A DNA stretch of 64,000 nucleotides from an uncultured Acidimicrobiales bacterium (GCA_963697385.1 CAVONU010000006.1:13424-77423), one strand, 5' to 3'; positions 3,096-18,992 are shown, counted from the stretch's first letter. The notes: generated from the letters alone by a model not told the origin. Program-made: numbers and translations.

Positions 3096-5861
3096 TCAGG
3101 CACCGACTGCGGCTGGTTCTGCTCCCACCACCTCTGAGTGCGACGCCCTGTCGAGGCGGCGGATCTGCCTGGCGTTGTCGACGGCGACGACCAGCGGCGA
3201 GACGAGTGACAACCCGATGACGAGAACCCATTGGGCGCCGGTGAGCGGAACGGTGTCGAGCAACCGTTGGAGCATGTTCAGCTCGACCGCCGCCCATGTG
3301 AGCGTCCATCCGAGCATGATCCAGCCGAGGAACGGGAACACGGGCGAGGACCACGGAACCTCCCGCTCGCGCCGCATGACGAGCCCCATGTTGACCGCAC
3401 TCAGGGCGACGACAGCGAAGGCCATCGTCATCGCTACCGAGGGGTCGGTGGTACTCGGCTCGTCGGGCCCCCAGGACAGGATGCCGAGGGCGAGTCCGGC
3501 GATGATGAAACCGCTGATCGCCCAGCGCACCGTCTGAGCTCTCGTGGCGATCTTCGAACCGGGCGTACGCGGCGGGCGCTGCATGACCCCGGGATCGGGC
3601 ACGTCGACGATGAACCCGACGACCACGGTCGCCACGACGAAGAACTTGGCGAACAGCAGCTGCATCGGGAAGAGCGCGACACCGCCGTTGATGTCGAACA
3701 CCGTGGCGAGCAGCATCAGCTGCAGCACCGAGGACAGGATCGTCAACTGCAACTTCACATAGGACGAGATCCGGCGGTAGATGTCGCGGCCGAGATCGAC
3801 GGCGTGGATGAGCGTGCCGAAGTTGTCGTCGGTGAGGATCAGCTTGCCGGCCTGCTTCGTCACCTCCGAACCGCTCCCCATCGCAACCCCGACGTCAGCC
3901 TGTTTCAACGCGGCAGCGTCGTTCACCGCATCGCCGGTCATCGCCACGACCTCGCCGGCCTCCTGCATCAGGCGGGCGAGGCGAACCTTGTCCTCGGGAG
4001 CAACTCGACCGAAGACATGCAGCTGCGGGAGCTGTTCAATCACCTCGTCGTCGCTGAGGTGCGAGAGGTCGGCGCCCGTGATCACCCCAGGGCCGAGCCC
4101 CAGTTCGTCGGCGATGGCCCGAGCGGTCACGGTGTGGTCGCCGGTGATCATGCGGACGTCGATCCCGGCGACGCTGGCGACGCGAACGGCCTCGACGGCC
4201 TCGGCGCGCAACGGGTCGATGATGCCCACGAGCGACACCAACATCAATTCCTCGACGGCTGCCATCGGGTCGTCGAGCGCTGCGGTCATCGTGTCGTCCG
4301 GCAGGTCACGGGCAGCGAAAGCGAGCACCCGCAAGCCGCGCTCGGACAGTTCCCGGTTGGCGCCCAGGATCTCCTCGCGCACCTGTCCCATCGGGATCCG
4401 CTCGCCGTGCCAGAGGGCCGTCGTGCATCGATCGATGACGACGTCCGGCGCACCCTTCACACTGGCGAAGTGGGGTTCGTGGAGGAGGCCTCCGGAGAAC
4501 GAGTCGGGGCGGTCGTGGAACGTCGCCATGAACTTGTATTCGGAATCGAACGGCACCATGCCCCGCCGCGGGAGGGTCCGGCGGGTCTCCTCGGCGTCCA
4601 CGCCGACCTTGGCGGCCAGGACGACGAGAGCCGCCTCGGTCGGGTCGCCGATGATCGACTCGTCGTCGGCCACCGTGGCATCGCTGCACAGGGCCAGACC
4701 CAGGCCCAGCCGAGTGAAGTCCGGCGCGGTCGCACCGGCAGCGCCCAGGATGGCACCCGTCTTCCGGTAGCCACCTCCCTCGATCTTGTACCAGTCGCCA
4801 CCGGTGAGCATCGTCGTCGCCGTCATGGCGTTCATCGTCAGCGTCCCGGTCTTGTCGCTGTTGATGACCGTCGTGCCACCGAGCGTCTCGACATCGGTGA
4901 GCGATTTGACCACCGCTTTGGCCTCGGCGAGCCGCTGGGCCCCCGACGACAGCATCAGTTGGACGAACGTCGGCAGGCCCGTGGGGATGGCGGAGATCGC
5001 GGTCGAGACACACAGCAGAATCAGCGTCTCGGACTCCTGATCGCGGGCGATACCGACGATCGCGATCACGGCGACGGCCGCCCAGGCGAGCACCCCGAAG
5101 ATCTTGGTCAGATCGTCGAGCTCGCGTTGCAGCGGCGACTTCGCGTGCTTGGTCGCCGTGACCATGTTGGCGATCCGGCCCATCTGCGTCGACTCGCCCG
5201 TGGCGACCACGACGACGAGCGCAGAGCCACGGGTGACCTGTGTGTTCTGAAAGACGAGGTTCGTCCGATCGCCGAGCGCCGTCTCGCCTGGGGGGAGCAC
5301 CGTCGCGTCCTTGGCGATCGGCGCGCTCTCGCCGGTGAGGGCCGCCTCCTGGATCTCCAGCGAAGCCGAGCTGACGATGCGCGCGTCGGCCGGAACGAGG
5401 TCACCGGCCTCGAGCAGCACGATGTCGCCGGGCACGAGGCCGGTCGAATCGACCTCTTCGACACCACCCGCCCGTCGAACCCGAGCCACGGGAACCTGGA
5501 GCTGAGCGAGCGCATCGACACTCGCCGCGGCCTTTCGCTCCTGGTTCGTCCCCATGATCACGTTGAACAGCACGAGCAGCATGACGATCGCACCCGTCGG
5601 GATCTGCCCGATCGAGAAGCTCGCAACGCTGACGATGAGCAGCATGATGTTCATCGGGTTGAGGAGTTGGCCCTTTGCCACTTCCCACAGGGTGGGCGGG
5701 GCTTCGGTGGCGACCTCGTTCGGTCCGTACTGCGCCAGACGCTGCCGGACCTCTTCGGGGTCGAGCCCTTGTTCAGCGCCGACGGTGAAACGGGACAACG
5801 CGTCGTCCGCTGACAGCGAGTACCAGGCAACCTCCTCGGTGGTCTGGTCGATCGTGGTCAT
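3096..5861 (-). CDS. P-type ATPase, P2-like architecture, non-canonical transport site
   Basis: TGES, DKTGTLT, KGAP, MITGD and GDAVND motifs; about 10 TM segments; M4 reads PTGLP instead of PEGLP. Confidence 0.95.
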   Translation of the reverse strand: MTTIDQTTEEVAWYSLSADDALSRFTVGAEQGLDPEEVRQRLAQYGPNEVATEAPPTLWEVAKGQLLNPMNIMLLIVSVASFSIGQIPTGAIVMLLVLFNVIMGTNQERKAAASVDALAQLQVPVARVRRAGGVEEVDSTGLVPGDIVLLEAGDLVPADARIVSSASLEIQEAALTGESAPIAKDATVLPPGETALGDRTNLVFQNTQVTRGSALVVVVATGESTQMGRIANMVTATKHAKSPLQRELDDLTKIFGVLAWAAVAVIAIVGIARDQESETLILLCVSTAISAIPTGLPTFVQLMLSSGAQRLAEAKAVVKSLTDVETLGGTTVINSDKTGTLTMNAMTATTMLTGGDWYKIEGGGYRKTGAILGAAGATAPDFTRLGLGLALCSDATVADDESIIGDPTEAALVVLAAKVGVDAEETRRTLPRRGMVPFDSEYKFMATFHDRPDSFSGGLLHEPHFASVKGAPDVVIDRCTTALWHGERIPMGQVREEILGANRELSERGLRVLAFAARDLPDDTMTAALDDPMAAVEELMLVSLVGIIDPLRAEAVEAVRVASVAGIDVRMITGDHTVTARAIADELGLGPGVITGADLSHLSDDEVIEQLPQLHVFGRVAPEDKVRLARLMQEAGEVVAMTGDAVNDAAALKQADVGVAMGSGSEVTKQAGKLILTDDNFGTLIHAVDLGRDIYRRISSYVKLQLTILSSVLQLMLLATVFDINGGVALFPMQLLFAKFFVVATVVVGFIVDVPDPGVMQRPPRTPGSKIATRAQTVRWAISGFIIAGLALGILSWGPDEPSTTDPSVAMTMAFAVVALSAVNMGLVMRREREVPWSSPVFPFLGWIMLGWTLTWAAVELNMLQRLLDTVPLTGAQWVLVIGLSLVSPLVVAVDNARQIRRLDRASHSEVVGAEPAAVGA

Positions 5862-5905
5862 CCCTGATTCCTTCTCCGGGTCGTCGGCTCACACATGCTT
5901 CCTGC

Positions 5906-6763
5906 TCAGTACGGCTCGGGGATGTGACGCAGCGGAAGACTGGGCTCGCTGTAGTCTCCGGCCCGCTGGCGCCGCGGCAGTTTGATCTCTCGAGACTCAG
6001 GTTTCTCGTAGGGGACCTGCGAGAGCAGGTGGGAAATGATGTTGAGCCGGCCGCGCTTCTTGTCGTCGGTATGGGCGATGAACCACGGCGCCCAAGCGGT
6101 GTCGGTCGTGGCCAACATCGCGTCACGGGCCCTCGAGTAGTCATACCACCGGCTGTAGGACTTCAGATCCATGTCGGACAGCTTCCAGATCTTCCGAGGA
6201 TCTTCCATCCGGTTCTTGAGCCGGCGGGTCTGCTCCTTCGAGCTGACCTCGAGCCAGTACTTGATGAGCAGGATGCCCGAGTCGACCATGGCCCGCTCAA
6301 CGGTCGGGACCTGCTCGAGGAACCGGTCGGTCTGGTCCTGAGTGCAGAACCCCATCACCGGCTCGACACCGGCACGGTTGTACCAACTGCGGTCGAAGAT
6401 CACGACCTCCCCCGCCGCGGGGAAATGTGACATGTACCGCTGGACGTACATCTGGGTCTTCTCGCGCTCGGTCGGCGCCGGAAGAGCGACGACGCGGAAG
6501 ACACGCGGGCTCACGCGTTCGACGATCCGCTTGATGGTTCCACCCTTGCCGGCGGTGTCGCGCCCCTCGAACACGATGCAGATCTTGGCGCCGCTGGCCT
6601 TCACCCATTCCTGCATCGCGACCAACTCGCCATGGAGTTCACGCAATTCGGCTTCGTAGTGCTTCCGCTTCATCTTCGGCTTGACAGCACCGACCTCGTC
6701 GCCAGACGAATCACCTGGCGACGAGTCCATGTCCTTCTTGGGCTTCTTGGCCTTCTTGCCCAT
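5906..6763 (-). CDS. ppk2: polyphosphate kinase 2 (single domain)
   Basis: FEGRDTAGKGG, FDRSWYNRAG, lid region WKLSDMD. ATG at 6763 with GGAGGAG RBS. Confidence 0.93.
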   Translation of the reverse strand: MGKKAKKPKKDMDSSPGDSSGDEVGAVKPKMKRKHYEAELRELHGELVAMQEWVKASGAKICIVFEGRDTAGKGGTIKRIVERVSPRVFRVVALPAPTEREKTQMYVQRYMSHFPAAGEVVIFDRSWYNRAGVEPVMGFCTQDQTDRFLEQVPTVERAMVDSGILLIKYWLEVSSKEQTRRLKNRMEDPRKIWKLSDMDLKSYSRWYDYSRARDAMLATTDTAWAPWFIAHTDDKKRGRLNIISHLLSQVPYEKPESREIKLPRRQRAGDYSEPSLPLRHIPEPY

Positions 6764-6914: not shown

Positions 6915-7071
6915 TCCCTGCGCGTCTCCGGTCGATTTGTCATGATCACCCCGTGCGGGGGATGACACCGAGCCCGTCTTCGTGCTCCGATGTACGAGAA
7001 GGCCGATGCTCCGACCACGAAGCGGGCCGGCGGACACGTCTCCTGCGGGGCGACGAGAGCAGGAGAAGAGG

Positions 7072-8463
7072 GTGAACGACGTGCCACATGACGGGTCCGA
7101 GGGCGCACCGGCAGGGGCGAGGAGCCCCGGTCGGAGACTGGCGGCGATCGGCGCGCTGGTCCTGGCCGGGACAACGGCGGTGGTCGCGGCGGTCGGCGTG
7201 TCGGGCCAGTTGTGGCGCGTGCTGCTGGTTCCGGTCCTACTGCTCGTCGTCACGGGCGCCGGCTGGGTGGCGGCCACCCGCACGGGAGTGGCTCGGCTCG
7301 GCGCGACCGGCATCGCTGCCGTCGGCGCGGCGGCCATCGCAGCGCTCGCGCTCACGGGCGAGACGAGTGGCCTGCTTCTCGTGGTGTTCGTGGTGTTGGT
7401 GGCAGCGTCCATTGCGCTGTGTCGGTATGCACTGGCCGGGATGCACGCGGAGGTCGCGTTCGAGACCCGCGCGGGTGGCACGTCGGTGAGGCGGGCGCTC
7501 CGCGGCGCGCTGATCATGAACCCGAAGTCCGGTGGTGGGAAGGCAGTGCGCTTCCACCTCGAGGACGAAGCGAACAAGCGGGGGATCGAGCCGATCGTGC
7601 TCAGTCCCGGCGATGATCTGGTTCAACTGGCGCGGGATGCGATCGACCGGGGCGTCGACGTCATCGGCGTGGCCGGTGGCGACGGGACCCAGGCGCTCGT
7701 GGCCTCGATCGCCATGACCGCGGACGTCGCCGTCGTCTGCGTTCCCGCCGGCACGCGCAACCACTTCGCGCTCGACCTCGGTCTCGACCGTGACGACGTC
7801 GTCGGTGCGCTCGATGCGTTCGGCGAGGCGATCGAGCATCGGATCGACCTGGCAACGGTCGGTGATCGAGTCTTCGTCAACAACGTGTCCCTCGGCGTCT
7901 ACGCCAAGATCGTGCAGTCGCCCGAGTACCGCGACGCGAAACGGCAGACCACGGCCAAGATGCTCCCCGAACTACTCGGCCCCGATGCCGCACCGTTCGA
8001 CCTGCGCTTCACCTCACCCGACGGTGTCGCCCATGGAGGTGCCCAGATCGTGCTCGTCTCGAACAACCCCTACACGTTCTCCGCCCTCGGTGGATTCGGG
8101 ACCCGGGCTCGGATCGACGGTGGGGAACTCGGCGTGAGCACGGCGGAGGTGCATGGTGGCGGTGAGGCGGCGGAGGCGGCCGCAGCCATCATGGCGGGCC
8201 GTCCCGACCGATTCCGGGGGTGGTCGGAGTGGGCCGCCCCCGAGTTCGTCGTCGATTCCGGCCGTCAGATCGAAGCGGGTGTCGACGGGGAGGCGCTGCT
8301 GTTGGACCCACCCCTGGTGTTCCGGTCACTGCCGGGCGCCCTGCGGGTGCGGATCCCGACCCACGCCCCGGGTCTGGCGCCCGCGGCCCTCCGGTCGCCC
8401 TCGGTGTGGTGGAGCATCTCCGCGCTGTTCCGGGTCATCGCCGGCCGACCCGCCCCGGCCTGA
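7072..8463 (+). CDS. diacylglycerol/lipid kinase family protein with N-terminal TM segments
   Basis: NPKSGGGK, AGGDGT, PAGTRNHFA, FVNNVSLG, GVDGE. Four hydrophobic N-terminal helices. GTG at 7072 after AGGAG. Confidence 0.88.
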   Translation: MNDVPHDGSEGAPAGARSPGRRLAAIGALVLAGTTAVVAAVGVSGQLWRVLLVPVLLLVVTGAGWVAATRTGVARLGATGIAAVGAAAIAALALTGETSGLLLVVFVVLVAASIALCRYALAGMHAEVAFETRAGGTSVRRALRGALIMNPKSGGGKAVRFHLEDEANKRGIEPIVLSPGDDLVQLARDAIDRGVDVIGVAGGDGTQALVASIAMTADVAVVCVPAGTRNHFALDLGLDRDDVVGALDAFGEAIEHRIDLATVGDRVFVNNVSLGVYAKIVQSPEYRDAKRQTTAKMLPELLGPDAAPFDLRFTSPDGVAHGGAQIVLVSNNPYTFSALGGFGTRARIDGGELGVSTAEVHGGGEAAEAAAAIMAGRPDRFRGWSEWAAPEFVVDSGRQIEAGVDGEALLLDPPLVFRSLPGALRVRIPTHAPGLAPAALRSPSVWWSISALFRVIAGRPAPA

Positions 8464-8504: not shown

Positions 8505-9808
8505 TCAGATACCGGTGCTGTCGGGGCGGTCCCCGCCGGGGCCGTCCGCGTCGAGGCGGGCGATGTCGTCCAGAGCCGCGTCGACACTGGGATAGAAGTG
8601 ATCCCGATCTAGGGTCTCGTCCAGGCCGTACCGCGCCACCAGATCCTGCAGCCTGCCCCGCAATTCGACGAACGCCAGATGCACGCCGTGGGCGTTGAGC
8701 TCGAGGTCCAGCCGTTGCAGCATGTCCGCGGCGGTGACGTCGACATCGGTGATCGCCTCGCACTGCAACACCACCCATGTCGGGTTCCGTTCCTGCACGA
8801 GCCCGCGGACCTGTTCGAGGAAGATGCTCGCATTCGCGAAGAACAGGGGCGCCTCCCATCGGTAGACCACGACCCCGGGGACTTCGACGGTCTCGTCGGT
8901 CCTGTCGATGCTGCGCCAGCCCTCGACCTCATCGACCCGACCGAGTACCTCGCCGTGCGGCCACCAGCTCCGCCGGAAGAACAGCAGGATCGACAGGATG
9001 ACGGCGATCAGAATCCCCTGGAGCACCCCGAAGAGCACCACACCCACCGTCGCCACGATCGAAAGCATCAGGGCGCTGCGTCGCACCTTCGCGTAGCGGC
9101 GCAGCACCGCCACGTCCGTGAGTGACAACGCCGCCGCAATGACCACCGCTGCCAGCGCGGTCTGCGGCAGATCCGCGAGCAGCGAGTTGAACGCGATGAG
9201 AAGCAGAGCGACACCAGCAGAACCACGAGTACGGCCGTGCCCAGCACCAAGGACGTCCGGTTGGTGTCGGACAGGCCCTTCAGGAACTGTCGGACCTCGT
9301 CGACGAAGCCGTCGGCGTCGGTGGAGAAGCCGAACAGCTTGGGAAGCTGGCCAACGATGATGGTGATGGCCAGGCCGTTCATGTAGCCGACCTGGACCTC
9401 CTTGGAGAGGAGGCCGGCGACGAACCCCAACTTGCCGAGCCCCAACCCGATCTCGATCAGCCCGACGAGGACGGCAAGCATCCCGGCAAGAGCGATGGCC
9501 TTTCCCGGGTCGTCGCCGGCCACGAGCAACGGCGTGATCGCGACGAAGATCAGCGGGGAGATGGACGAGTCCGGCCCCAGCACGAGGACTCGGGACGGCC
9601 CGAAGATCGCGTAGCCGACCAGGCAGGCGATCGTCGTGTAGAGACCGGTGACCGCCGGCAGGCCGGCCAACTCCGCGTAGGCCATTCCCTGCGGGACGAG
9701 AATCGCCGCCAGGACGACTCCCGCGACCACGTCAGGTCGCAGCCACTCCGCCTGGTAGCCGCGAACGAGCCGGATTCCCGGTACCCAGCGCCGCACCAGA
9801 GTCGACAT
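8505..9808 (-). pseudogene. sulP: SulP/SLC26 anion transporter with internal deletion and frameshift
   Basis: N-half (LVPQGMAYAELAG, GPDSS) starts at ATG 9808 and changes frame near 9215 into ALLLIAFNSLLADLP...STAS domain. About 140 codons are missing relative to the intact paralog at 41572. Confidence 0.8.
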
Positions 9809-9900
9809 GCCAGCTTCCTCCGACGGCACCACGCGGTCCCCTCTTCCGACAGAACGCCGGATTCGTCCAACCAGCATGCATGGCTACCCGAGCCGGCGAA

Positions 9901-10508: not shown

Positions 10509-12659
10509 ATGTCGATCGCCATCACAGATGACCACCAGACCCTTGCCGAGACCGCTCGCGACTTCCTGGGGAGGCGCGACGCACGCGGCGATGCCCGAGC
10601 GCTGCTCGAAGCCGCCGGCGAGGAACTGCCGTCGTGGTGGGACGAACTGGCCGCGCTCGGCTGGCTCGGCCTCCACGTGCCCGAAGGCCATGGCGGCTCG
10701 GGCTACGGGCTGGAGGAGCTGGTGGTCGTGGTGGAGCAACTCGGTCGCGCCGTGGCCCCGGGGCCCTTCGTGCCGACGGTGATCGCGAGCGCGGTGCTGG
10801 CCGAGGCGGGAGGGCCGACCGCTGCCGAGCACCTCCCAGGTCTGGTCGACGGCTCGGTCATCGGAGCGGTCGCTTGGGGCGGAGACGTCACGATCGATGG
10901 AGAAACCGCGTCGGGCCCCGTGGGCAACGTGCTGGGAGGCGGCCTCGCCCAAGTGCTGCTCGTCGCCGCGGGCGAGGACGTCGCGGTCGTGCAGGTAGGA
11001 GACGGCACCACCGTCGAAGTGCCCCCGAACATGGACCCCACCCGCCGGACCGCCCGCGTGTCTCTCGACGGCGCACCCGCCATGGTGCTCACGGGCGCCC
11101 GCCGGTGGCTGGTCGACGTCTCGCGGGCGATCCTCGCGGCCGAGGCCGTCGGGCTCGCACAGGAGTGCACCCAGATGGCCGCGGACTATGCAAAGGAGCG
11201 GGTGCAGTTCGGTCGACCGATCGCGATGTTCCAGGCCGTGAAGCACCACTGCGCCAACATGGCCGTGGCGACCGAGCTGGCGACCGGCGCCGTCTGGGAC
11301 GCCGCCCGGGCATCGGCCACCGGTGGTGACCAGTTCACCTACGCGGCCGCGGTGGCGGCCACCCTCGCCCCGCCCGCGGCCGACCTGTGCGCCAACCTCA
11401 GCACCCAGGTGCACGGCGGCATCGCGATCACCTTCGAACACGATGCCCACCTCTTCATGCGCCGCGCGACCGTGCTGCTCGGCGCGGTGGAGCCCGACCG
11501 TGCCGCGGCCGATCTCACCGACCTCACCCGCCGGGGTGTGACCCGTGCTCGCAGTGTCGAGCTCCCACCCGAGGCCGAGGCGATCCGCGACCAGGTCCGG
11601 ACTATCGCCGAATCCATCGGGGACCGCTCGCCCGAGGAGCAGCGCACCCAGCTCATCGAGTCGGGCTACGTCATGCCTCATTGGCCCAAGCCATGGGGCC
11701 GCGAGGCCACAGCCGGCGAGCAGATCGTGATCGAGCAGGAGTTCGGCGCAGCCGGCATCGATCGCCCCTCCTACAGCATCACCGGGTGGGTGATCCTGAC
11801 GCTGGTCCAGCACGCGACCGACGATCAGGTGGCGCGGTGGGTGCGCCCGGCGCTGAACCAGGAGGTGATCTGGTGCCAGCTGTTCTCCGAACCCGAGGCC
11901 GGCTCGGACGCCGCCGGGGTGAAGACCCGCGCCATCCGAGTCGAGGGAGGGTGGCTGCTCAACGGGCAGAAGGTGTGGACCAGTGGCGCTCACGTGGCCG
12001 GCCTTGGCCTCGCAACCGTGCGCACCAACCCGGAGGTGCCGAAGCACCAGGGCATCACCACCATGGTGATCGACATGCACGCCGAGGGCGTCGAGGTGCG
12101 TCCGATCAAGATGACCACCGGCGACTCGGAGTTCAACGAAGTGTTCTTCACCGATGTCTTCGTGCCCGACGATGACGTCGTCGGGCCGGTCGACGGCGGC
12201 TGGACGGTGGCTCGCGCCACCCTCGGCAACGAGAGCGTCAGCATCGGGGGCGGCGATGGTGGCATGTCCTTCCCGCCCTCGGCGCTCGTGACGTCCTTCG
12301 ACGCGCACCCCGAGCGCCTCGCCGGCGGCGCCAGCCGGATCGGTCGTTACGCCGCCACCCACCAGGCGATGGGGCTCCTCAACCTCCGAAGCGCCAACCG
12401 GGCCGTCGCCGGCGGGGGCCCCGGGCCCGAGGGTGCCATCACCAAGCTGGTGCTCTCGGAACTGGGACACGAATCGGCTGCGGTGCTCACCGACCTGGGA
12501 GGCCCGGACAGCGCGTTCATGGAAGGGCCGGCGGCGATGACCAACTACCTCGTGCTCCTGCACCGGGCCATGTCGATCGCCGGCGGAACCTCGGAGATCA
12601 AGCGCAACCAGATCGGTGAGCGCATCCTCGGCCTCCCGCGGGATCCACTGATCACATAG
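10509..12659 (+). CDS. fused two-domain acyl-CoA dehydrogenase (FadE6/FadE22/FadE34-like)
   Basis: 716 aa with two ACAD modules: RVQFGRPIAMFQAVKH, then QLFSEPEAGSD, FNEVFF and IAGGTSEIKRNQIGERILGLPR. Confidence 0.92.
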   Translation: MSIAITDDHQTLAETARDFLGRRDARGDARALLEAAGEELPSWWDELAALGWLGLHVPEGHGGSGYGLEELVVVVEQLGRAVAPGPFVPTVIASAVLAEAGGPTAAEHLPGLVDGSVIGAVAWGGDVTIDGETASGPVGNVLGGGLAQVLLVAAGEDVAVVQVGDGTTVEVPPNMDPTRRTARVSLDGAPAMVLTGARRWLVDVSRAILAAEAVGLAQECTQMAADYAKERVQFGRPIAMFQAVKHHCANMAVATELATGAVWDAARASATGGDQFTYAAAVAATLAPPAADLCANLSTQVHGGIAITFEHDAHLFMRRATVLLGAVEPDRAAADLTDLTRRGVTRARSVELPPEAEAIRDQVRTIAESIGDRSPEEQRTQLIESGYVMPHWPKPWGREATAGEQIVIEQEFGAAGIDRPSYSITGWVILTLVQHATDDQVARWVRPALNQEVIWCQLFSEPEAGSDAAGVKTRAIRVEGGWLLNGQKVWTSGAHVAGLGLATVRTNPEVPKHQGITTMVIDMHAEGVEVRPIKMTTGDSEFNEVFFTDVFVPDDDVVGPVDGGWTVARATLGNESVSIGGGDGGMSFPPSALVTSFDAHPERLAGGASRIGRYAATHQAMGLLNLRSANRAVAGGGPGPEGAITKLVLSELGHESAAVLTDLGGPDSAFMEGPAAMTNYLVLLHRAMSIAGGTSEIKRNQIGERILGLPRDPLIT

Positions 12660-12962
12660 GGCGGCTCCCAGCGCACGGCACGGCCAGGAGGGCCCCGCTG
12701 CCTGCGGGATGAACCGCTCGGTTCTGTTGCCACTCGTCCGAGAAGCCCTCATCGATGAGCCGGGCCGGTCATCGTCGGCGGTGTCACCGTCTCCGCCGAA
12801 GCCGGAGTCGAGGCATGGGAGATCGGCGTGTTCGCCGTGTTCCTGGGGTTCATCCCGACCGGTCCCGGACTCCTGCTCGGACTGCTCCGTCTCACGATCC
12901 GGCGGGCCTTGTCACCAATCGCGAGCTCTAGGCTTCGCTGCAGCGTCGCACCGGAGGGTCTG

Positions 12963-13820
12963 ATGGTCTCAGGATTTCAGCTCGCTCGAGCCCAGGCCGA
13001 GGCCTATGAGGCTCACTCCGGGGTCTTCATGGGCCCGTCCGCTGAGCTGATGGTCGACCATGCCAGCCCCGGCGCGGGCGACGTCGTGCTCGACCTGGCC
13101 TGTGGGACCGGTCTGATCGCCCGGGCCGCGAGGTCGCTGGTGAGGCCCAGCGGGCGGGTCGTTGCCGTCGACGTGAATCCGGCCATGCTCACCGCCGCCC
13201 GCTCGCTGGCCGGTCCTGGGATCGAGTGGTTCGAGGCACCAGCCGAAGCCATGCCGTTCGAGGACGCCACCTTCACCCATGTCCTGTGCCAACAGGGATT
13301 CCAGTTCTTCGCCGACCCGGCGGCCAGCGTCCGAGAAGCTCACCGCGTGCTCCGCCCCGATGGGACCCTACTGGCAACGGTGTGGGCAACCCCGGGCCTC
13401 AATCCATACATCGAGACGCAACTCGAGCTGCTCGCGGAACTGGACCCGGCAGCGGCTCCGTCTGCACGGGCCGCCACGCCTCCCCACGCAGACGAGATGC
13501 TGGCATCGATGGCTTCGGACGCCGGATTCGACAAGGTCACCGTGTCGCCACTCGAGCACCAAGTGCTGCTGCCCGATCTGCGAACATTCTTCCTCGCGCA
13601 GACTTCCACCACCCCGTGGGCACCCACCGTTTCAGCGCTGCCGGCGCCCGAGCAGCAACACCTGGCCACCGTATTCGCCATGCGGCTCGCCCCCTGCGCG
13701 AACCCGGACGGAAGCCACCTGGTCCCGTTCCGCTCCCACCAACTCGTCGCCCGCCGAGTAGACGACGCAGGTCACAGCGCCGCCGTCGCTCCCCGGCAGG
13801 TGCCCGAAACTCGGCCATGA
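12963..13820 (+). CDS. class I SAM-dependent methyltransferase
   Basis: VLDLACGTG motif I, VDVN, MPFED, RVLRPDG. ATG at 12963 after GGAGG. Confidence 0.85.
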   Translation: MVSGFQLARAQAEAYEAHSGVFMGPSAELMVDHASPGAGDVVLDLACGTGLIARAARSLVRPSGRVVAVDVNPAMLTAARSLAGPGIEWFEAPAEAMPFEDATFTHVLCQQGFQFFADPAASVREAHRVLRPDGTLLATVWATPGLNPYIETQLELLAELDPAAAPSARAATPPHADEMLASMASDAGFDKVTVSPLEHQVLLPDLRTFFLAQTSTTPWAPTVSALPAPEQQHLATVFAMRLAPCANPDGSHLVPFRSHQLVARRVDDAGHSAAVAPRQVPETRP

Positions 13821-13844
13821 ACCCGTGACCGGGTCCCCCCCGCC

Positions 13845-14468
13845 TCAAGCTTCGGGTACGAGGTTCGCGAACGCATCGGCTCGGTCGCGCTCGATCCGGT
13901 CGGCATCGCGACCCCGGCCGCCCTTGGCGACATAGTCCGCGGTGAACTCGGCTCGGACCTCGCCCGTCTCGTCGAGCAACCACTCGGGAGCCATGCGACG
14001 GGGGACGGTGACGACACCCGGCTCGTCGTACGTACCGAACACTCGGTCCCACACCGGCGTCGTCACGCCGAAGTTCCGCATGGGAGCACCGAAGTGGTGG
14101 TGGAGATGGCTCCGACGGGCCCACCGACCGTATCGACCGCGGGGCGGATGGGTGTGGGTCCGCCGGTGAGCCACTTCATACCCGAAGTAGGTCATGATCA
14201 TCCCCGCGGTGAACGCCATGGCCCAACGCCGCCCGGCCACGGCCTGCGCCACGGGGTACGCGACCGCCGTCGTACCCGCGGCCGAGGCCACCTTCTTCGA
14301 CGCTGGGGAGAAGTAGCTGACATCGGCATGATGCTTCAGATGCTCGACCGACGGCAGCCCTCGGCCCCGCATCTCGTGCATGGCGAAGCGGTGCAGGCCG
14401 TACTCGGCCGCCGTCCAGGAAATCGCACCCACGGCGACGGCGGTGACGGGAGACCTGAGCGTGGTCAT
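13845..14468 (-). CDS. fatty acid hydroxylase / sterol desaturase family protein
   Basis: Histidine boxes EYGLHRFAMH, HLKHH, YEVAHRRTH, HLHHH; NFGVTTPVWDRVFGT. Confidence 0.9.
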   Translation of the reverse strand: MTTLRSPVTAVAVGAISWTAAEYGLHRFAMHEMRGRGLPSVEHLKHHADVSYFSPASKKVASAAGTTAVAYPVAQAVAGRRWAMAFTAGMIMTYFGYEVAHRRTHTHPPRGRYGRWARRSHLHHHFGAPMRNFGVTTPVWDRVFGTYDEPGVVTVPRRMAPEWLLDETGEVRAEFTADYVAKGGRGRDADRIERDRADAFANLVPEA

Positions 14469-15516: not shown

Positions 15517-15969
15517 TCATTCACTTCCCTTCGCTTCGTCGGCCTCGAACGAGGCAATCAGTGCCTGGGTCGGGATGCGGCCACTGGCGATCAGTTGCCC
15601 ACCCGACTCCCGAGCCGCCACCGCGAACGGTGCCGCCCACGTGTTCTCCCACACCAGGACTCCTGCCGTACTGCCCGGCTCCATCGCCGCGGCCAGGTGC
15701 TCGAGGTCCTCGAGGGCGAGAATCTCCGCCAGTCCCGCTTCAAGTGTTCCGAGCACACCCAGATCGCCGAGGTCCTCGATCTCGAGTGCATCGATGGTGC
15801 CGTCGTTGGCCTTCTCGAGGATCAGCAGGTCGAACACTCGGATGAGCTCGGCCTCGGCGAGCGAGGCCAACTCCCTCGCCATCGCACCGGTGAAGTTCTT
15901 CGTACCTTCGGGGAACTCGACGACGAGGTAGTCGATCGGTCCCAGTTCTTCGTCGGGGGTGTCGCTCAT
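15517..15969 (-). CDS. DUF6325-family protein (copy 1)
   Basis: GPIDYLVVEFP ... MEPGSTAGVLVWENTWA ... GGQLIASGRIP; GAGGAG RBS. Confidence 0.85.
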   Translation of the reverse strand: MSDTPDEELGPIDYLVVEFPEGTKNFTGAMARELASLAEAELIRVFDLLILEKANDGTIDALEIEDLGDLGVLGTLEAGLAEILALEDLEHLAAAMEPGSTAGVLVWENTWAAPFAVAARESGGQLIASGRIPTQALIASFEADEAKGSE

Positions 15970-16051
15970 GATTCGTCTCCTCGGTGACCGAACGGGAATC
16001 GCCCTTCGGGGGCCAGATCCGGAGGATCGCGTGGAATCGCAGTATCTGTCG

Positions 16052-16068
16052 TCCTCCACAATGGGTGA
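16052..16068. promoter_or_regulatory. imperfect 17-bp palindrome TCCTCC-N5-GGGTGA upstream of DUF6325
   Basis: TCCTCCACAATGGGTGA, about 83 bp upstream of ATG 15969; one mismatch to the consensus. Confidence 0.35.
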
Positions 16069-16122
16069 TCCGGCGTCCCTCGGGTCGGACCGGTGGATGC
16101 TCCCGACCTCGGGTCAGGGCTC

Positions 16123-16443
16123 TCAGAGGCCGAGGATCTTCGCCTTCTGCGCGGCGAACTCCTCCTCGGTGAGGATGCCCTGTTGCCTCAGGTCACCCAG
16201 CTTCTGCAGTTGATCGAGGGCGTGGCTCTCACCGTCCACGGGGGTGGGCGCGGGCGGCGGCGCCGGGGCGACGGCGGGTTGGCCATAGACCTCTTGTTGG
16301 TACGCCTGTTGCCGCTCGGCGTAGATGTGGGCGTCTCGGTCTGCGTACCGTTCGGCTTGGCGGCGCTGGACGCGTCCGCTCACGGCCGAAGCCGTGCCGG
16401 CTACGACGGCTGTGCGGGCGACTCCTCTGAGAAGTCCGGGCAT
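16123..16443 (-). CDS. SHOCT domain protein
   Basis: MPGLLRGVARTAVVAGTA N-terminus, Q/P-rich linker, C-terminal LQKLGDLRQQGILTEEEFAAQKAKIL. Confidence 0.9.
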   Translation of the reverse strand: MPGLLRGVARTAVVAGTASAVSGRVQRRQAERYADRDAHIYAERQQAYQQEVYGQPAVAPAPPPAPTPVDGESHALDQLQKLGDLRQQGILTEEEFAAQKAKILGL

Positions 16444-16468
16444 GGTTCGGTCCTTTCGTGGTGGTGGA

Positions 16469-16894
16469 TCAGCTGGCGGATTCGGCGGCGTCGAGCGCGT
16501 CGAGCAGCACCTGCGATGGGATGCGCTCACTGGCGATGAGGTGGCCGCCGGCGCCGGAAGCCGCGGCGACGAAGGGAATGGCCCAGGCGTTCTCATATGC
16601 GATCAGGAGTGCAGCGGTGCCGGGCTCCATCGCCGCGACCGATTGGCCGATGTCCTCGTCGTCGAACAACCCCGATTGAGCCCCGGCGAATGCTCCGAGC
16701 GCAGCATCGGTCGCAAGATCACGGCGTCCGCAGTCGCTCTCACTCGTCTTGTGGACGAGCGCGATGTCATACAGCCGAATCGTTCCGCCTTCGAGGAGAT
16801 CGGACAGTGCGGCTGCGGTCGGCTTGGTATCGGCCTCCGCAGGGAACTCGATCAGCACGAAATCGATCGGGCCAGGTATGACTGACTCGCTCAT
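16469..16894 (-). CDS. DUF6325-family protein (copy 2)
   Basis: GPIDFVLIEFP ... MEPGTAALLIAYENAWA ... GGHLIASERIP. Confidence 0.85.
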   Translation of the reverse strand: MSESVIPGPIDFVLIEFPAEADTKPTAAALSDLLEGGTIRLYDIALVHKTSESDCGRRDLATDAALGAFAGAQSGLFDDEDIGQSVAAMEPGTAALLIAYENAWAIPFVAAASGAGGHLIASERIPSQVLLDALDAAESAS

Positions 16895-16971
16895 GGGTGC
16901 TCCCTCTTGCGCTCCGGACGACAAGCGAATCTGCATCTTCGCGCAGGATCCACACCCATGCGGTCGACGAG

Positions 16972-17568
16972 TCACTGGCCGCTTCGCTCGCCGCCCGGTG
17001 GTGTTGCAGGAGGGGCCGTGGCGTGTAGCGCGCTCGGCAATTGCCGTTTCGATCCCCGGGTCTGCTGGATCGCGGTGGCGATGACTCGGATCCCGATGCC
17101 GATCACCACGAGGTTGACCGTCATCTGGATCGTCACCACCGCCCTGCCGTTCTCCGTCACCGGCGCGATGTCGCCCAAGCCGACCGTCGAGAACACCATC
17201 ACGGCGAAGTAGAGCGCGTCGGTACGAGTCAGCGGCTCGCTGAACGTCGACGGCGCTCCGTCCGACATCAGGTAGTAGGCGGCGGCAAAGCTCAGAATGA
17301 GCAGCGGGACGGTGAGCGCGAGGCCTTCGACGGCCCGCAGCCCGGGCAACGGCGAGCGAATGATGGCGCGCACCTGCACGACGATGAGCACGACGAGCAA
17401 CGCCAGCAGGCCGGCGAGGATCAGACCGACGGACGCGTCAACCGGTCGGTCGAACGGAGCGAGGAAGAACGCCAGCAGCAAGGCTGTGACCGAGACCAAC
17501 ACCCGCCCGACGGCCATCAGGCCGATGAGCCAGATCGGCCGGTTGCGGGCTTCGGCGTCCGTGCTCAT
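16972..17568 (-). CDS. two-TM-pore potassium channel family protein
   Basis: DALYFAVMVFSTVGLGDIAP pore helix and filter. ATG overlaps the ClC stop (ATGA). Confidence 0.88.
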   Translation of the reverse strand: MSTDAEARNRPIWLIGLMAVGRVLVSVTALLLAFFLAPFDRPVDASVGLILAGLLALLVVLIVVQVRAIIRSPLPGLRAVEGLALTVPLLILSFAAAYYLMSDGAPSTFSEPLTRTDALYFAVMVFSTVGLGDIAPVTENGRAVVTIQMTVNLVVIGIGIRVIATAIQQTRGSKRQLPSALHATAPPATPPGGERSGQ

Positions 17569-18992
17569 CCGGCGGCTCGATCGCCCCTGCGACCCGGTCC
17601 GTTCGACTCCGGGCCCGACGAGGCAGCCGGCGCGATCGCAACCGACTCGGCATCGGGCGGTGTCAGCCGGACGGAGGCGACGTAGGCCACCACGACCGCG
17701 ACGATGACGAGCGGCATGAGGGTGACGCCGTCCGCTTGGAGAAACAGCGTCGTCAACAGGACCGATGTCAGCGGGAGCCGCAGCATGGTGACGGCCATGC
17801 CGCCGATCCCCATCGCAACACCGGCGACGAGGGGCAGTCCCGGCAGGTGCGACAACGCCACGCCCATCGCCGCACCGATGAACATGGCCGGAAACGTGGG
17901 TCCTCCCCGGAAGGCGCTGAGCGAGAGCATGTAGGCGATTCCCTTGCACACGATCAGCAACACGAGCGCAGCGACGGTCCAGGAATCGGCATCCTGGATC
18001 AGCGGGGCCAACGCGTTCTCGCCCGAGTACAAGACCTGATCGACGCCCTTGTCCGTCGCCTGGGCGAACACGATGGCAGCGAGTCCGACGACCGCGCCCA
18101 GAGTCGGGGTGAGCACCATGCGCCGTTTCGCCACCGTCGGTTGGAGGACGAGGCTGCCTCGTTTGATGGCCGTTCCCAAGACCGCAGCCAGCAGACCAAT
18201 GGCGATGGCCCAGAGGAACTGGTACCCGTCGATCGACTCGAAGGCCGGAAGGTCCGGAATCGCGAGCGAGAAGGTCCCCCAGCCGGAGAGGTTGTCGAGA
18301 CCGATGAACACCAATGACCCGATCCCGGCCGCGAGCAGGCCCGGCACGAGCAACACACCCATCATCGGCCCGGCGATACCGACGATCTCCATCAGAAGGA
18401 ACGCACCGACGATCGGGGATCCGAGCAGCGTGCTGATGGCCGCGAAGCTGCCGGCGGCACCGATCACCACCGTCGCCTGCTCCGGCGCATCGCGCTTGAC
18501 CAGTCGGACCGCCAGGACGGCGAGTCCTCCACCAAGAGCGATGAGGGGGGCCTCGGGCCCCAGCACCGCACCGAACGTGAGCGTGACCAGTGCAGCGATC
18601 GCCACCCCGTACAGCTCGACCGGTGCGGGCGTGCCGGAGGCGGACAGTCCCCCGGACGGCTCGTGACCACCGTTTCCGGGCAGGAACTCGATCGCCGATG
18701 CGGTGAGCACGCCGGCGATCACCAGCACCGGCAACGGCCACCAGACCGGGACCGCCGAAAACCCCATGTCGGTGGGAAGGTCCGAGTACAGCCACTCCTG
18801 GCCGACATCGGTCAGCTTGAGAAAGCCATAGGCCATGGCTGCGACCGGCACACCGATCACGGCACCGAACAACAGCAGCCCGAGATACGGTCGGCTGCGG
18901 AGCATGTCCAGCGGGTCTGGCGGCGCGGAGCCTGAGGCTTGCACCTCACCAGTGAACCTCATCGAGTCGAGCCGGTTGGCGATACCGTCCAC
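17565..18992 (-). CDS. ClC-family chloride channel/transporter without CBS domains (start uncertain, 18944-18992)
   Basis: GNGGHEP, LGPEAP, GSFAAIS, RGGPTFP; about 11 hydrophobic segments. Confidence 0.88.
   Translation of the reverse strand: MDGIANRLDSMRFTGEVQASGSAPPDPLDMLRSRPYLGLLLFGAVIGVPVAAMAYGFLKLTDVGQEWLYSDLPTDMGFSAVPVWWPLPVLVIAGVLTASAIEFLPGNGGHEPSGGLSASGTPAPVELYGVAIAALVTLTFGAVLGPEAPLIALGGGLAVLAVRLVKRDAPEQATVVIGAAGSFAAISTLLGSPIVGAFLLMEIVGIAGPMMGVLLVPGLLAAGIGSLVFIGLDNLSGWGTFSLAIPDLPAFESIDGYQFLWAIAIGLLAAVLGTAIKRGSLVLQPTVAKRRMVLTPTLGAVVGLAAIVFAQATDKGVDQVLYSGENALAPLIQDADSWTVAALVLLIVCKGIAYMLSLSAFRGGPTFPAMFIGAAMGVALSHLPGLPLVAGVAMGIGGMAVTMLRLPLTSVLLTTLFLQADGVTLMPLVIVAVVVAYVASVRLTPPDAESVAIAPAASSGPESNGPGRRGDRAAG

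Follow-up and report, generated by a model that had tools for sequence, protein, structure and literature searches.

The P-type ATPase encoded in the window (the whole stretch of 64,000 nucleotides that was analysed) is a member of clade A, within a non-canonical, actinobacterial group derived from P2A pumps, and comparison of the aligned homologues indicates that the ion site of this Actinomycetota clade was rebuilt and then frozen. The reading that we favour, with a probability of roughly 0.4, is that the enzyme is an ion-motive pump whose likeliest cargo is H+ or some other monovalent ion; a lysine in M6 would serve as carrier or built-in counter-ion, and the ATP would be derived from polyphosphate or arginine. 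The features of the locus are as follows.

3096–5861, minus strand: P-type ATPase CDS, 921 aa (translation; Pfam and NCBIfam scans; AF2 model; Foldseek)
3390–3401, minus strand: M8 SAVN, A822 at the E908 position (LMCA1 alignment; conservation table)
3633–3662, minus strand: M6 QLLFAKFFVV, K739 codon at 3645–3647 (HMMER vs. LMCA1 and SERCA1a)
3720–3743, minus strand: M5 polar stripe TILSSVLQ, with T707, S710, S711 and Q714 (alignments; conservation)
3918–3935, minus strand: GDAVND, P-domain hinge and Mg2+ motif (located by translation)
4137–4145, minus strand: TGD motif (located by translation)
4446–4457, minus strand: KGAP, N-domain motif (located by translation)
4842–4856, minus strand: DKTGT, phosphorylation motif with D336 (located by translation; invariant in alignment)
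4971–4988, minus strand: M4 motif IPTGLP, T294 at SERCA E309 (HMMER alignments; DSSP break)
5325–5336, minus strand: TGES, A-domain dephosphorylation motif (located by translation)
5658–5660, minus strand: N68 in M1 (alignment to LMCA1; clade counts)
5862–5905, minus strand: ppk2–ATPase spacer of 44 nt with ribosome-binding site GGAGAAGGAA and no terminator-like site
5906–6763, minus strand: class I PPK2 CDS (PF03976, 1.5e-93; TIGR03707 score of 357, above the cut-off of 302)
6982–8463, plus strand: membrane-anchored DAGK/YegS-like lipid kinase, divergent (PF00781; hydrophobic N-terminus)

The ATPase reading frame is open throughout and starts with an ATG located 8 nt downstream of GGAGAAGGAA. 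The protein contains the Pfam domains Cation_ATPase_N, E1-E2_ATPase, Cation_ATPase, Hydrolase and Cation_ATPase_C, which constitute the complete P2 architecture, and it scores 240 against a cut-off of 62 with the P-type superfamily profile TIGR01494. A previous reading of the window, made from the sequence only, had described the catalytic core as intact; each of the motifs that it named (viz. DKTGT, TGES, KGAP, TGD, and GDAVND) was located by translation, and these motifs, the last in the form GDxxND, are invariant across 119 aligned sequences. The ATPase is thus predicted to be catalytically competent. An alignment-based AF2 model (pLDDT 83.6; a single-sequence AlphaFold model with a pLDDT of 38.7 was discarded) has a 10-helix fold like that of SPCA1, SERCA and LMCA1, with Foldseek TM scores of 0.80–0.86; the top structural match is SPCA1 in the E2~P state (TM 0.86), followed by LMCA1 and SERCA. 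In this model the M4 helix is unwound at IPTG, as seen in a DSSP break at residues 292–295.

The closest sequence matches to the ATPase are found among PMR1/SPCA and bacterial P2A Ca2+ pumps (E about 1e-134), and both the 10-TM fold and the position in the tree, which was built with FastTree only, place it among the P2A pumps. Clades A and B, together with their C-type and D-type relatives, form a non-canonical group with 100% support among the E/N/MDG PMR1-like pumps, and the ATPase appears to descend from PMR1/SPCA-like pumps with a single Ca2+/Mn2+ site. Its scores with the P2A equivalog profiles are well below the cut-offs (476.8 vs. 798.3 for TIGR01522 and 455.6 vs. 703.4 for TIGR01116), and it retains none of the Ca2+ ligands; the relationship is therefore one of descent, and the enzyme is almost certainly no longer a Ca2+ pump. 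Other families do not fit either. V743 stands at the position of the M6 Asp of the P3A H+-ATPases, which is D684 in AHA2 and is accompanied there by an Arg on M5 (TIGR01647, 346 vs. 615.5), the M5 and M6 carboxylates of the P2D ENA pumps are missing (TIGR01523, 395.7 vs. 645), and the KdpB (P1A) family is contradicted by the 10 TM helices, by a score of 118 vs. 528 with TIGR01497 and by an M6 Lys that has no partner Asp; kdpA and kdpC are likewise absent from the recurrent neighbours in the best 80 related loci. The CtpE family (TCDB family 23, "P6") has VPEGL and about 800 aa, vs. IPTGLP and 921 aa here. Families 23 (CtpE, VPEGL) and 24 (CtpH/I, with a long N-terminus) are uncharacterised type-II families of TCDB, and neither of them, as described in the papers that cite them, fits the ATPase with its M4 IPTGLP.

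The residues of the ion site were mapped by HMMER alignment to LMCA1 of Listeria (6zhf) and to SERCA1a (1iwo numbering). In both alignments T294 falls at SERCA E309, and K739, V742 and V743 fall at N796, T799 and D800, respectively; the site-II ligands of the P2A pumps (viz. the Glu of PEGL in M4 and the Asn and Asp of NxxxD in M6) are absent, and T294, K739 and V743 are found instead. In M8 the LMCA1 alignment places A822 at the position that we take to be the equivalent of SERCA E908, and the adjoining S821 and the invariant N824 are specific for the clade. These assignments bear out the sequence-only reading in its claims that PEGL has become PTGL in M4 (at about 4972–4986), that the Asn of M6 has become Lys and its Thr and Asp have become Val, and that the Glu/Gln of M8 has become Ala. 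The register of M5 is uncertain: three alignments differ in it by as many as 3 residues, and in these N768 and E771 of SERCA correspond to I708 and S711 (HMMER with LMCA1), to L709 and V712 (MAFFT and the sequence-only reading) or to S711 and Q714 (HMMER with SERCA). No carboxylate is present at these two positions in any of the three registers; of the proposed replacement of SSNVGE by TILSSV, the absence of a carboxylate stands, whereas the exact register is one of three alternatives. No Asp or Glu was found in the core of M4, M5, M6 or M8 in the conservation table, and the HMMER and MAFFT alignments agree that all of the canonical cation ligands have been replaced, as had been claimed.

A further change is located in M1, where N68, at the position presumably corresponding to SERCA D59, is Asn in all 118 clade A sequences, whereas Asp is found at this position in LMCA1 and in 115 of the 116 members of the sister clade B; an extra acidic residue on the cytoplasmic entry side would thus be neutralised. 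The M5 stripe (T707, S710, S711 and Q714) sits on the face that bears N768 and E771 in SERCA, and it forms part of a set of polar residues that surrounds the lysine in clade A (viz. T287, T294, T707, S710, S711, Q714, T745, S821, and N824). The contacts that K739 makes within the site are predicted purely by homology. The earlier description of a hydrophobic site with one Lys was correct in regard to the Lys (K739), but the site is polar and uncharged rather than simply hydrophobic, and in view of the conserved stripe on M5 the description was overstated.

The M4 motif IP[T/V]GLP and K739 are retained by the 118 close homologues of the ATPase (73–99% identity; K739 in 118/118), none of which satisfies the canonical pattern of P2A site-II ligands. 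Position 294 is Thr in 110 of them, Val in 7, Asp in 1 and Glu in none; close homologues with PEGL, which the sequence-only reading had named as the finding that would make this a lone degenerate copy, were thus not encountered, and that interpretation is rejected. S710, N824 and T287 are each present in 118/118, and the residues of the M5 polar stripe are 97–100% conserved in clade A. The majority-residue frequency of M4, M5 and M6 (0.91–0.92) equals that of the P domain and exceeds that of the N domain (0.81), indicating that the ion site is under selection, which in the case of the new site in clade A is strong and purifying. The consensus sequences of clades A and B are only 36–38% identical in M5 and M6, in comparison to 63–76% in the cytoplasmic domains, and the conservation of M4–M6 within clade A combined with the divergence of M5 and M6 from clade B is best explained by functional respecification, not decay. 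Related stretches are present in species genomes in at least 556 instances, and 79 of the best 80 loci among these are from Actinomycetota. Full-text literature searches found no paper on a pump with PTGL and an M6 Lys, nor on the pairing of PPK2 with a P-type ATPase.

The ppk2 gene upstream of the ATPase likely starts at MGKKAKKPKK (6763), giving a protein of 285 aa; the mechanical ORF extends to 7174, and the start was fixed because the orthologues share a conserved Lys-rich start. With the ppk2 stop at 5906–5908 and the ATPase ATG at 5859–5861, the gap is exactly the 44 nt reported earlier, and as no terminator-like site occurs in it, the suggested co-transcription is plausible. Matches to the stretch were found only in DNA metagenomes from soil and sediment, with no RNA runs containing it. 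Among the best 80 loci, PPK2 is found within 8 kb of the pump in 43, in several arrangements: it is adjacent to the pump in 26 (five arrangements), within 8 kb in 10 more, and represented by a different class (TIGR03709) within the same distance in 7 further loci, in three of which (L035, L066, and L055) it lies directly upstream of or next to a D-type ATPase. The linkage with ppk2 is thus conserved across taxa and gene arrangements, and in the genome from which the window derives, with its 4 PPK2 genes and 6 P-type ATPases, this is the sole adjacent pair. Genes of the arginine deiminase (ADI) pathway are present in 25 of the 80 loci, 15 of which have them instead of PPK2, and PPK2, ADI genes or both occur in 58. 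An amino-acid permease is located directly upstream of the pump in 17 loci (median gap 20 bp), a Na_H_Exchanger gene is present in 17, and 36 have SulP anion transporters at a distance of no more than 8 kb. Within about 6 kb of genuine P3A H+-ATPases, PPK2 was found in none of nine cases (201 Actinomycetota genomes); proton pumps of the Actinomycetota are therefore not marked in general by this pairing, and as a proton-pump signature it lends no support. A polyphosphate-granule gene cluster around the pump was also considered and dropped, since the CHAD and ParA-like genes beside it in the window are conserved neighbours in 0 of the 80 loci.

The same genome also carries one pump with the canonical PEGL and another with PEAL, and a separate CtpE-like gene (IIPEGLVLLTS) is located elsewhere in it. 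The USP-rich stress island of the genome is occupied by the canonical PEGL pump and does not contain the PTGL pump, and the assignment of the latter to a DosR/hypoxia regulon was rejected for this reason; a role of the PTGL copy in hypoxia or dormancy is possible at most. Relatives from clade B adjoin a GAF-HisKA_3 kinase, a NarL-type regulator and a Usp gene. In strict aerobes, hypoxia islands contain SulP together with a cation ATPase (Sass, 2013; PMC3721108), as exemplified by CtpF in the M. tuberculosis DosR regulon and BCAM0318 in the lxa locus of B. cenocepacia, both P2-type ATPases from accessory islands of aerobes, where they are accompanied by SulP and stress genes (PMC3721108). The M4 motif of CtpF is canonical PEGL (PMC3573892), whereas the pump in the window has PTGL and sits outside the USP-rich island.

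According to the favoured reading as an ion-motive pump, the carboxylate and amide ligands were lost and K739 took the place of the site-II Asn, in the company of invariant neutral residues capable of hydrogen bonding and of a neutralised entry-side Asp in M1 (N68). Transport at the expense of ATP would concern a small monovalent species, with H+ as the likeliest; Na+ or K+ would be less likely cargoes. A fixed positive charge that lacks a carboxylate nearby is unfavourable for the binding of Na+ or K+ and would suit an anion equally well. PPK2 from the adjoining gene (polyphosphate + NDP -> NTP), or an arginine deiminase operon in other lineages, would supply the ATP. The pump would serve to maintain an energised membrane, or the balance of pH and ions, at times when respiration is unable to do so. 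The cargo, the direction of its transport, the function of K739 and the physiological setting are in each case what we infer; the recurrence of PPK2 or ADI operons and of Na+/H+ exchangers speaks for an ion-motive pump used under energy limitation rather than for an anion pump. P3A H+ pumps need an Asp in M6, and its replacement by V743 counts against H+. To our knowledge, the known built-in basic residues are all on M5, with none on M6. Built-in Lys/Arg counter-ions are known in the P1B-2, P3A, P4 and KdpB pumps (Palmgren, 2023; PMC10654040). We would also raise, tentatively, the broader possibility that clade A and its sister clades represent a new functional class, in which a lone buried lysine acts as proton carrier or anion partner and the pump forms a module with polyphosphate- or arginine-derived ATP; such a module would energise the membrane or move phosphate or other anions in non-respiring Actinomycetota.

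An anion pump, in which K739 amid Ser, Thr, Asn and Gln would hold Cl-, phosphate, sulfate, bicarbonate or a similar small anion and import it, probably on the E2-to-E1 half-cycle, is in our judgement rather unlikely. The neutralisation of five acidic or amide positions (viz. E309, D800, E771, E908, and the M1 Asp) together with the gain of a positive charge is in its favour, as are the frequency of SulP genes and the tie to phosphate chemistry that PPK2 provides, and the exchange of an acid for Thr near a Lys may be analogous to that in halorhodopsin, where Thr replaces the acid found beside the protonated Lys of bacteriorhodopsin. However, we know of no P-type anion pump that has been identified at the molecular level, the ADI and Na+/H+ exchanger neighbours suit the energetics of cations or H+ better, and the Val at position 294 in 7 of the 118 homologues indicates that the T294 hydroxyl is not an essential ligand. 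SulP transporters are uninformative on the cargo, since they also accompany ordinary cation ATPases in hypoxia islands (PMC3721108). An anion-translocating P-type ATPase would, if this reading were true, be the first of its kind. It is improbable that the enzyme transports nothing and that K739 permanently fills the ion site of a regulator, a sensor or a device for ATP or polyphosphate turnover. A tethered cation could mimic the occluded state, by analogy with K791 of the H,K-ATPase and with Artemia alpha2KK, and PDB entries 7et1 and 8k1l are among the sequence or structure matches to the ATPase; but the ten TM helices, and M4–M6 especially, are under purifying selection equal to that on the P domain, the many clade-specific invariant polar residues near the Lys are hard to explain without a function in binding or translocation, and a futile ATPase beside sources of scarce ATP would be costly.

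The sequence-only reading had proposed, as an alternative to an anion pump, a flippase for a phosphorylated lipid, i.e., a translocase of lipids or other large substrates that lost its ion ligands in order to accommodate such a substrate, perhaps the product of the neighbouring kinase, which we regard as very unlikely. Among the well-studied P-type pumps, only P4 and P5A are known to do without carboxylate, Cys or His ligands (Palmgren, 2023; PMC10654040), a membrane-anchored DAGK-like kinase is divergently located upstream in the window, and the small, beta-branched T/V after the M4 Pro resembles the Ile of the P4 motif PISL. Nevertheless, the ATPase has TGES in the A domain rather than DGET and IPTGLP rather than PISL, its scores are low with both the P4 profile TIGR01652 (59.4 vs. 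431) and the P5 profile TIGR01657 (227 vs. 618), and fold and tree nest it within the P2A, PMR1/SPCA-like pumps. A gene for the Cdc50-like beta subunit on which P4 flippases depend was not among the recurrent neighbours in the best 80 loci (linked genes of at least 90 aa), and a DAGK-like gene is present within 8 kb in only 15 of these loci (median distance 3.5 kb; within 1 kb in one). The lipid kinase is thus a neighbour and not a consistent partner of the pump, and the earlier claims of a flippase and of a link to the lipid kinase are not upheld. It is highly improbable, finally, that the database label "Ca2+-transporting ATPase/type 2C" is correct and that this is an ordinary metal-cation pump (Ca2+, Mn2+, or Mg2+) with alternative ligands. 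In NCBIfam and the PDB the ATPase is most similar to PMR1/SPCA, SERCA and LMCA1, and the breakdown of polyphosphate frees chelated divalent cations that might need export, but the equivalog scores given above, the Lys in a site whose M4, M5, M6 and M8 helices hold no carboxylate, and the PEGL and PEAL pumps already present in the genome all argue against it.

The specificity of P-type ATPases is usually deduced from a small number of carboxylate, amide, Cys or His residues located on M4–M6 and M8. Clade A is a large clade under strong selection that lacks these residues and has a fixed lysine at a position where a lysine is seen in no known pump; what it transports is not predictable from current rules, and in hundreds of genomes the above label is very probably incorrect. 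The linkage to PPK2 or to the ADI operon provides a concrete, testable setting in which ATP of non-respiratory origin would be spent at the membrane, which bears on the use of polyphosphate and on the survival of energy limitation by strictly aerobic actinobacteria in soil and sediment. If H+ is carried by the lysine, or if the cargo is an anion, the known chemistry of the superfamily would be extended.

The ATPase shares its 10-TM architecture, domain order and catalytic motifs with the PMR1/SPCA and bacterial P2A pumps (SPCA1, 8iwu; LMCA1, 6zhf/6zhh; SERCA1a), from which it differs in that E309 has become T, N796 has become K, D800 has become V and E908 has become A, and in its carboxylate-free M5. 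KdpB resembles it in having a Thr directly after the M4 proline (P264-T265). A lysine in the canonical site, proposed as counter-ion (PMC10654040), is a second likeness, but in KdpB this is Lys586 on M5, paired with Asp583, and the 7-TM KdpB depends on KdpA, KdpC and KdpF. The fungal ENA pumps also lack a Glu after the M4 proline, and TIGR01523 is the third-best NCBIfam match to the ATPase (396 bits). NcENA1, a pump of this P2D family, has IPAS in M4 and requires E818 in M5 and D860 in M6 for Na+ tolerance, and it shows that the M4 Glu is dispensable for the pumping of monovalent cations (PMC10779151); the ENA pump keeps its M5 Glu and M6 Asp, however, and the pump in the window has neither. 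The absence of an M4 Glu that is shared with P3A H+-ATPases is a resemblance only. Tethered basic side chains are present in a number of other pumps (viz. Lys791 of the gastric H+,K+-ATPase, Artemia Na+,K+-ATPase alpha2KK (8k1l), Arg655 of P3A, Lys693 of ZntA, and the M5 Lys of P4), where they replace a counter-transported ion and either alter the stoichiometry or remove the need for counter-transport. In those pumps the basic residue is located on M5 (in alpha2KK also on M4) and faces at least one carboxylate, whereas in the pump of the window it is located on M6, at the N796 position, in a core without a carboxylate.

The P-type ATPase encoded in the window (the PTGL pump) is a genuine variant of a P2A-derived pump, both conserved and unusual.

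3096-5861, (-) strand: P-type ATPase, unbroken ORF of 921 codons

The ORF starts with an ATG located 8 nt downstream of GGAGAAGGAA, and its product carries the full P2-type set of Pfam domains (viz. Cation_ATPase_N, E1-E2_ATPase, Cation_ATPase, Hydrolase and Cation_ATPase_C). The only NCBIfam cut-off reached is that of the generic TIGR01494, all named families scoring far under theirs (PMR1-type Ca2+-ATPase, 477 vs. 798; SERCA-type, 456 vs. 703; fungal ENA type, 396 vs. 645; P3A H+, 346 vs. 615.5). As described in papers citing the TCDB survey, the uncharacterised type-II families 23 (CtpE, VPEGL) and 24 (CtpH/I) do not fit this protein. The catalytic motifs TGES, DKTGT, KGAP, TGD and GDAVND, which the sequence-only reading had described as retained, are all present and are invariant across a 119-sequence alignment (A1) of clade A, the pump and its close homologues. 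An AlphaFold model built from this alignment (pLDDT 83.6, pTM 0.73) has ten TM helices with M4 unwound at residues 292-295, and Foldseek comparison with the PDB matches it best to human SPCA1 E2~P (TM 0.86), LMCA1 (TM 0.80-0.85) and SERCA E2 forms (TM 0.83-0.85).

The residues of the ion site were placed by HMMER alignment to Listeria LMCA1 and SERCA1a (1iwo numbering). In M4, SERCA E309 corresponds to T294 (motif IPTGLP, 4971-4988), and in M6, where the pump reads QLLFAKFFVV vs. LLWVNLVTD, N796, T799 and D800 correspond to K739, V742 and V743; A822 pairs with the M8 arginine of LMCA1, a position that we take to be that of SERCA E908. With these residues at the ligand positions, the loss of the canonical cation ligands proposed earlier is borne out. 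In M1, N68, at what is presumably the position of SERCA D59, stands where LMCA1 and the sister clade B have Asp. For M5, the three alignments disagree by up to 3 residues, so that the register is less certain than originally stated, but none of them places a carboxylate there, as had been proposed, and in all three the conserved stripe T707/S710/S711/Q714 lies on the ligand-bearing face. Alignment with the clade A homologues reveals no Asp or Glu in the M4, M5, M6 and M8 core, and the site, earlier characterised as hydrophobic with one Lys, is instead polar and uncharged, plus one Lys, whose contacts we infer through homology. Because of these residues, the names given by public pipelines to clade A proteins among the best database matches ("Ca2+-transporting ATPase" or "type 2C") are very probably wrong.

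These features are shared widely within the subfamily. The best 120 database matches to the pump (73-99% identity) retain IP[T/V]GLP and QLLF[A/C]KFF(V/I)V, and of 118 full-length homologues 110 have Thr, 7 have Val, 1 has Asp and none has Glu at position 294, as expected for the distinct subfamily envisaged by the sequence-only reading, while K739, S710, N824 and T287 are each found in 118/118. A lone degenerate copy is ruled out by the site motifs kept in these 118 homologues and by the at least 556 related stretches found when each species was represented by one genome. Actinomycetota account for 79 of the best 80 of these loci (Ilumatobacteraceae and other Acidimicrobiia, Solirubrobacterales, Streptosporangiaceae, Trebonia, Actinoplanes, Nocardiopsis and Jiangellales being represented in the 80). 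The remaining locus, L046, encodes a clade A pump of 75% identity in a MAG labelled Kiloniellales (Alphaproteobacteria), which reflects either binning contamination or transfer beyond Actinomycetota. Of 200 genomes sampled evenly across the phylum, only ~2% carry the gene; it is present in only one of eight same-order genomes, and identity across families is still 71-74%. The gene is accessory, patchily distributed and strongly constrained.

Among 1.8 billion representatives searched, relatives at 35-40% identity are nearly all canonical (PEGL in M4, N..E in M5 and N..(T/M)D in M6), whereas the nearest relative groups are non-canonical: clade B (55% identity) has PTGL in M4, Q708 and N739, with Asp absent; the C-type has PTGL or PEEL and an M6 Asn followed by D, I or Q; and in the D-type M4 carries PEAL or PMAM, the N796 position His or Asn, and the D800 position Asn or Thr. 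In a quick FastTree run, whose supports are SH-like only, clades A and B and the C- and D-types form one clade (100%) in which A and B are sisters (97%), and this clade is nested among pumps whose M6 motif, NIIMDGPP, is PMR1/SPCA-like. Consensus identity between clades A and B is only 36-38% in M5 and M6, vs. 63-76% in the cytoplasmic domains, while within clade A the majority-residue frequency is 0.91-0.92 in M4, M5 and M6, 0.91-0.98 in the P domain and 0.81 in the N domain. The picture is of a transport site that was first remodelled and later frozen, which argues for a new specificity and against decay.

The pump is reproducibly linked to polyphosphate or arginine ATP supply. In the window, a class I ppk2 (TIGR03707, 357 vs. 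a cut-off of 302) precedes the pump on the same strand, separated from it by a 44-nt gap that was correctly reported earlier and holds no terminator-like site; this genome encodes 6 P-type ATPases and has 4 genes for PPK2, among which this pair is the sole adjacent one. Within the best 80 loci, an orthologous PPK2 (≥68% identity) adjoins the pump in 26 (20 upstream and 3 downstream on the same strand, 2 convergent, 1 divergent), a non-adjacent PPK2 lies within 8 kb in a further 10, and in a further 7 the PPK2 found within this distance belongs to a second class (TIGR03709). Arginine deiminase (ADI) pathway genes (ADI, OTCase, carbamate kinase) are present in 25 of the 80, and in 17 the gene directly preceding that of the pump encodes an amino-acid permease (median gap 20 bp). 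Altogether, PPK2 and/or ADI genes occur at 58 of these loci, and the other 22 include several very short contigs. In L035 and L066 a TIGR03709-type PPK2 (~30% identical to that of the window) is immediately upstream of a D-type ATPase (L035 11018-14830, L066 11995-15509; M4 PEAL, His at the N796 and Asn at the D800 position), itself just downstream of the clade A pump; in L055 and L051 such a PPK2 (around 11030-11680) directly follows the clade A pump.

The true ppk2 start is at 6763, giving a conserved Lys-rich MGKK... N-terminus. The tag MGKKK[R/H]SKK... is common to pump-linked orthologues (also L003, L006-L024, L028, L044, L058 and L065), is separated from the core start K(L/M)KRKEYE by a variable Ala/Asp/Glu-rich linker, and may be a tether binding polyphosphate or membrane. 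Other features of the surroundings are as follows.

747-2252, (+) strand: CHAD-domain protein, 501 aa, N-terminal 220 aa without Pfam match
2252-2998, (+) strand: ParA/MinD-like ATPase, ATG overlapping the CHAD-gene TGA (TGATG, 2250-2254)
6650-6763, (-) strand: Lys-rich tag of PPK2
8505-9877, (-) strand: broken SulP/STAS transporter gene
10509-14468: acyl-CoA dehydrogenase, methyltransferase and fatty-acid hydroxylase block, between the pump and the DUF6325 group
15517-18795, (-) strand, as the pump: DUF6325 protein, SHOCT-domain protein and 607-aa protein with C-terminal Ion_trans_2 (K+ channel) domain

The TGA/ATG overlap suggests translational coupling, and the position of the CHAD-ParA pair next to ppk2 hints at polyphosphate-granule positioning; CHAD and ParA-like genes are conserved pump neighbours in 0 of the best 80 loci. 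The SulP/STAS gene has either become a pseudogene or been broken by an assembly error: orthologue residues 10-190 (9802-9260) and 399-568 (9044-8523) lie in different frames, and ~200 membrane-domain codons of the intact orthologue are absent between them. Elsewhere in this genome, on contig C1 (~11.8-25.4 kb), ~14 Usp-domain matches surround a canonical PEGL P2A ATPase (C1:19209). This cluster looks like a DosR/lxa-type stress island apart from the PTGL pump locus; the USP-rich island (C1, ~12-25 kb) houses the canonical PEGL pump and not the PTGL pump, so that a hypoxia-regulon role finds no support for the latter.

Recurrent neighbours in the best 80 loci are SulP-STAS (36), a MalT/LuxR-like regulator (32), MFS transporters (17), Na_H_Exchanger (17), DUF1269 (16) and a DAGK-like kinase (15, median distance 3.5 kb); clade B pumps are accompanied by Na+/H+ exchangers, DUF1269 and the ADI operon, and by a GAF-HisKA_3 kinase, a NarL-type regulator and a Usp gene. 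The common denominator is non-respiratory ATP supply and monovalent-ion exchangers, which favours an ion-motive role. We tentatively suggest, with a probability of about 0.4, that the cargo is H+ or another monovalent cation. The pump would act under energy limitation, drawing ATP from polyphosphate via PPK2 or from arginine via carbamate kinase, with no need for respiration. Fermenting bacteria spend ADI-derived ATP on proton extrusion. H+ would be carried by the lysine, its pKa lowered through burial. PPK2 linkage alone is no sign of a proton pump, since 201 genomes of Actinomycetota yielded nine true proton pumps of the P3A type, none with PPK2 nearby.

The site, with all negative charges removed and one lysine added, is compatible with lysine-borne H+ or a lysine-bound anion, and would be awkward for Na+ or K+. 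The same gain of a lysine in a site stripped of every negative charge is what speaks for an anion pump, which we consider improbable, though the foremost of the alternatives; SulP adjacency is no pointer to anion cargo, since SulP and cation ATPases are a recurrent pair in hypoxia islands (Sass et al., PMC3721108). A cycle that transports nothing is unlikely, and a lipid or large substrate is slightly more doubtful still: the flippase and lipid-kinase proposal of the sequence-only reading is unsupported, and the DAGK-like kinase is rare and distant. Least probable, by a little, is a divalent metal as cargo, for the site is unfavourable for Ca2+, Mn2+ or Mg2+; part of the probability is allotted to none of these readings.

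In ENA pumps the M4 Glu is dispensable, but E818 and D860 are retained (PMC10779151). Built-in Lys/Arg counter-ions are known from P1B-2, P3A, P4 and KdpB pumps (PMC10654040); in these the basic residue is on M5 and faces a carboxylate, whereas in the window pump K739 is on M6 within a carboxylate-free core.
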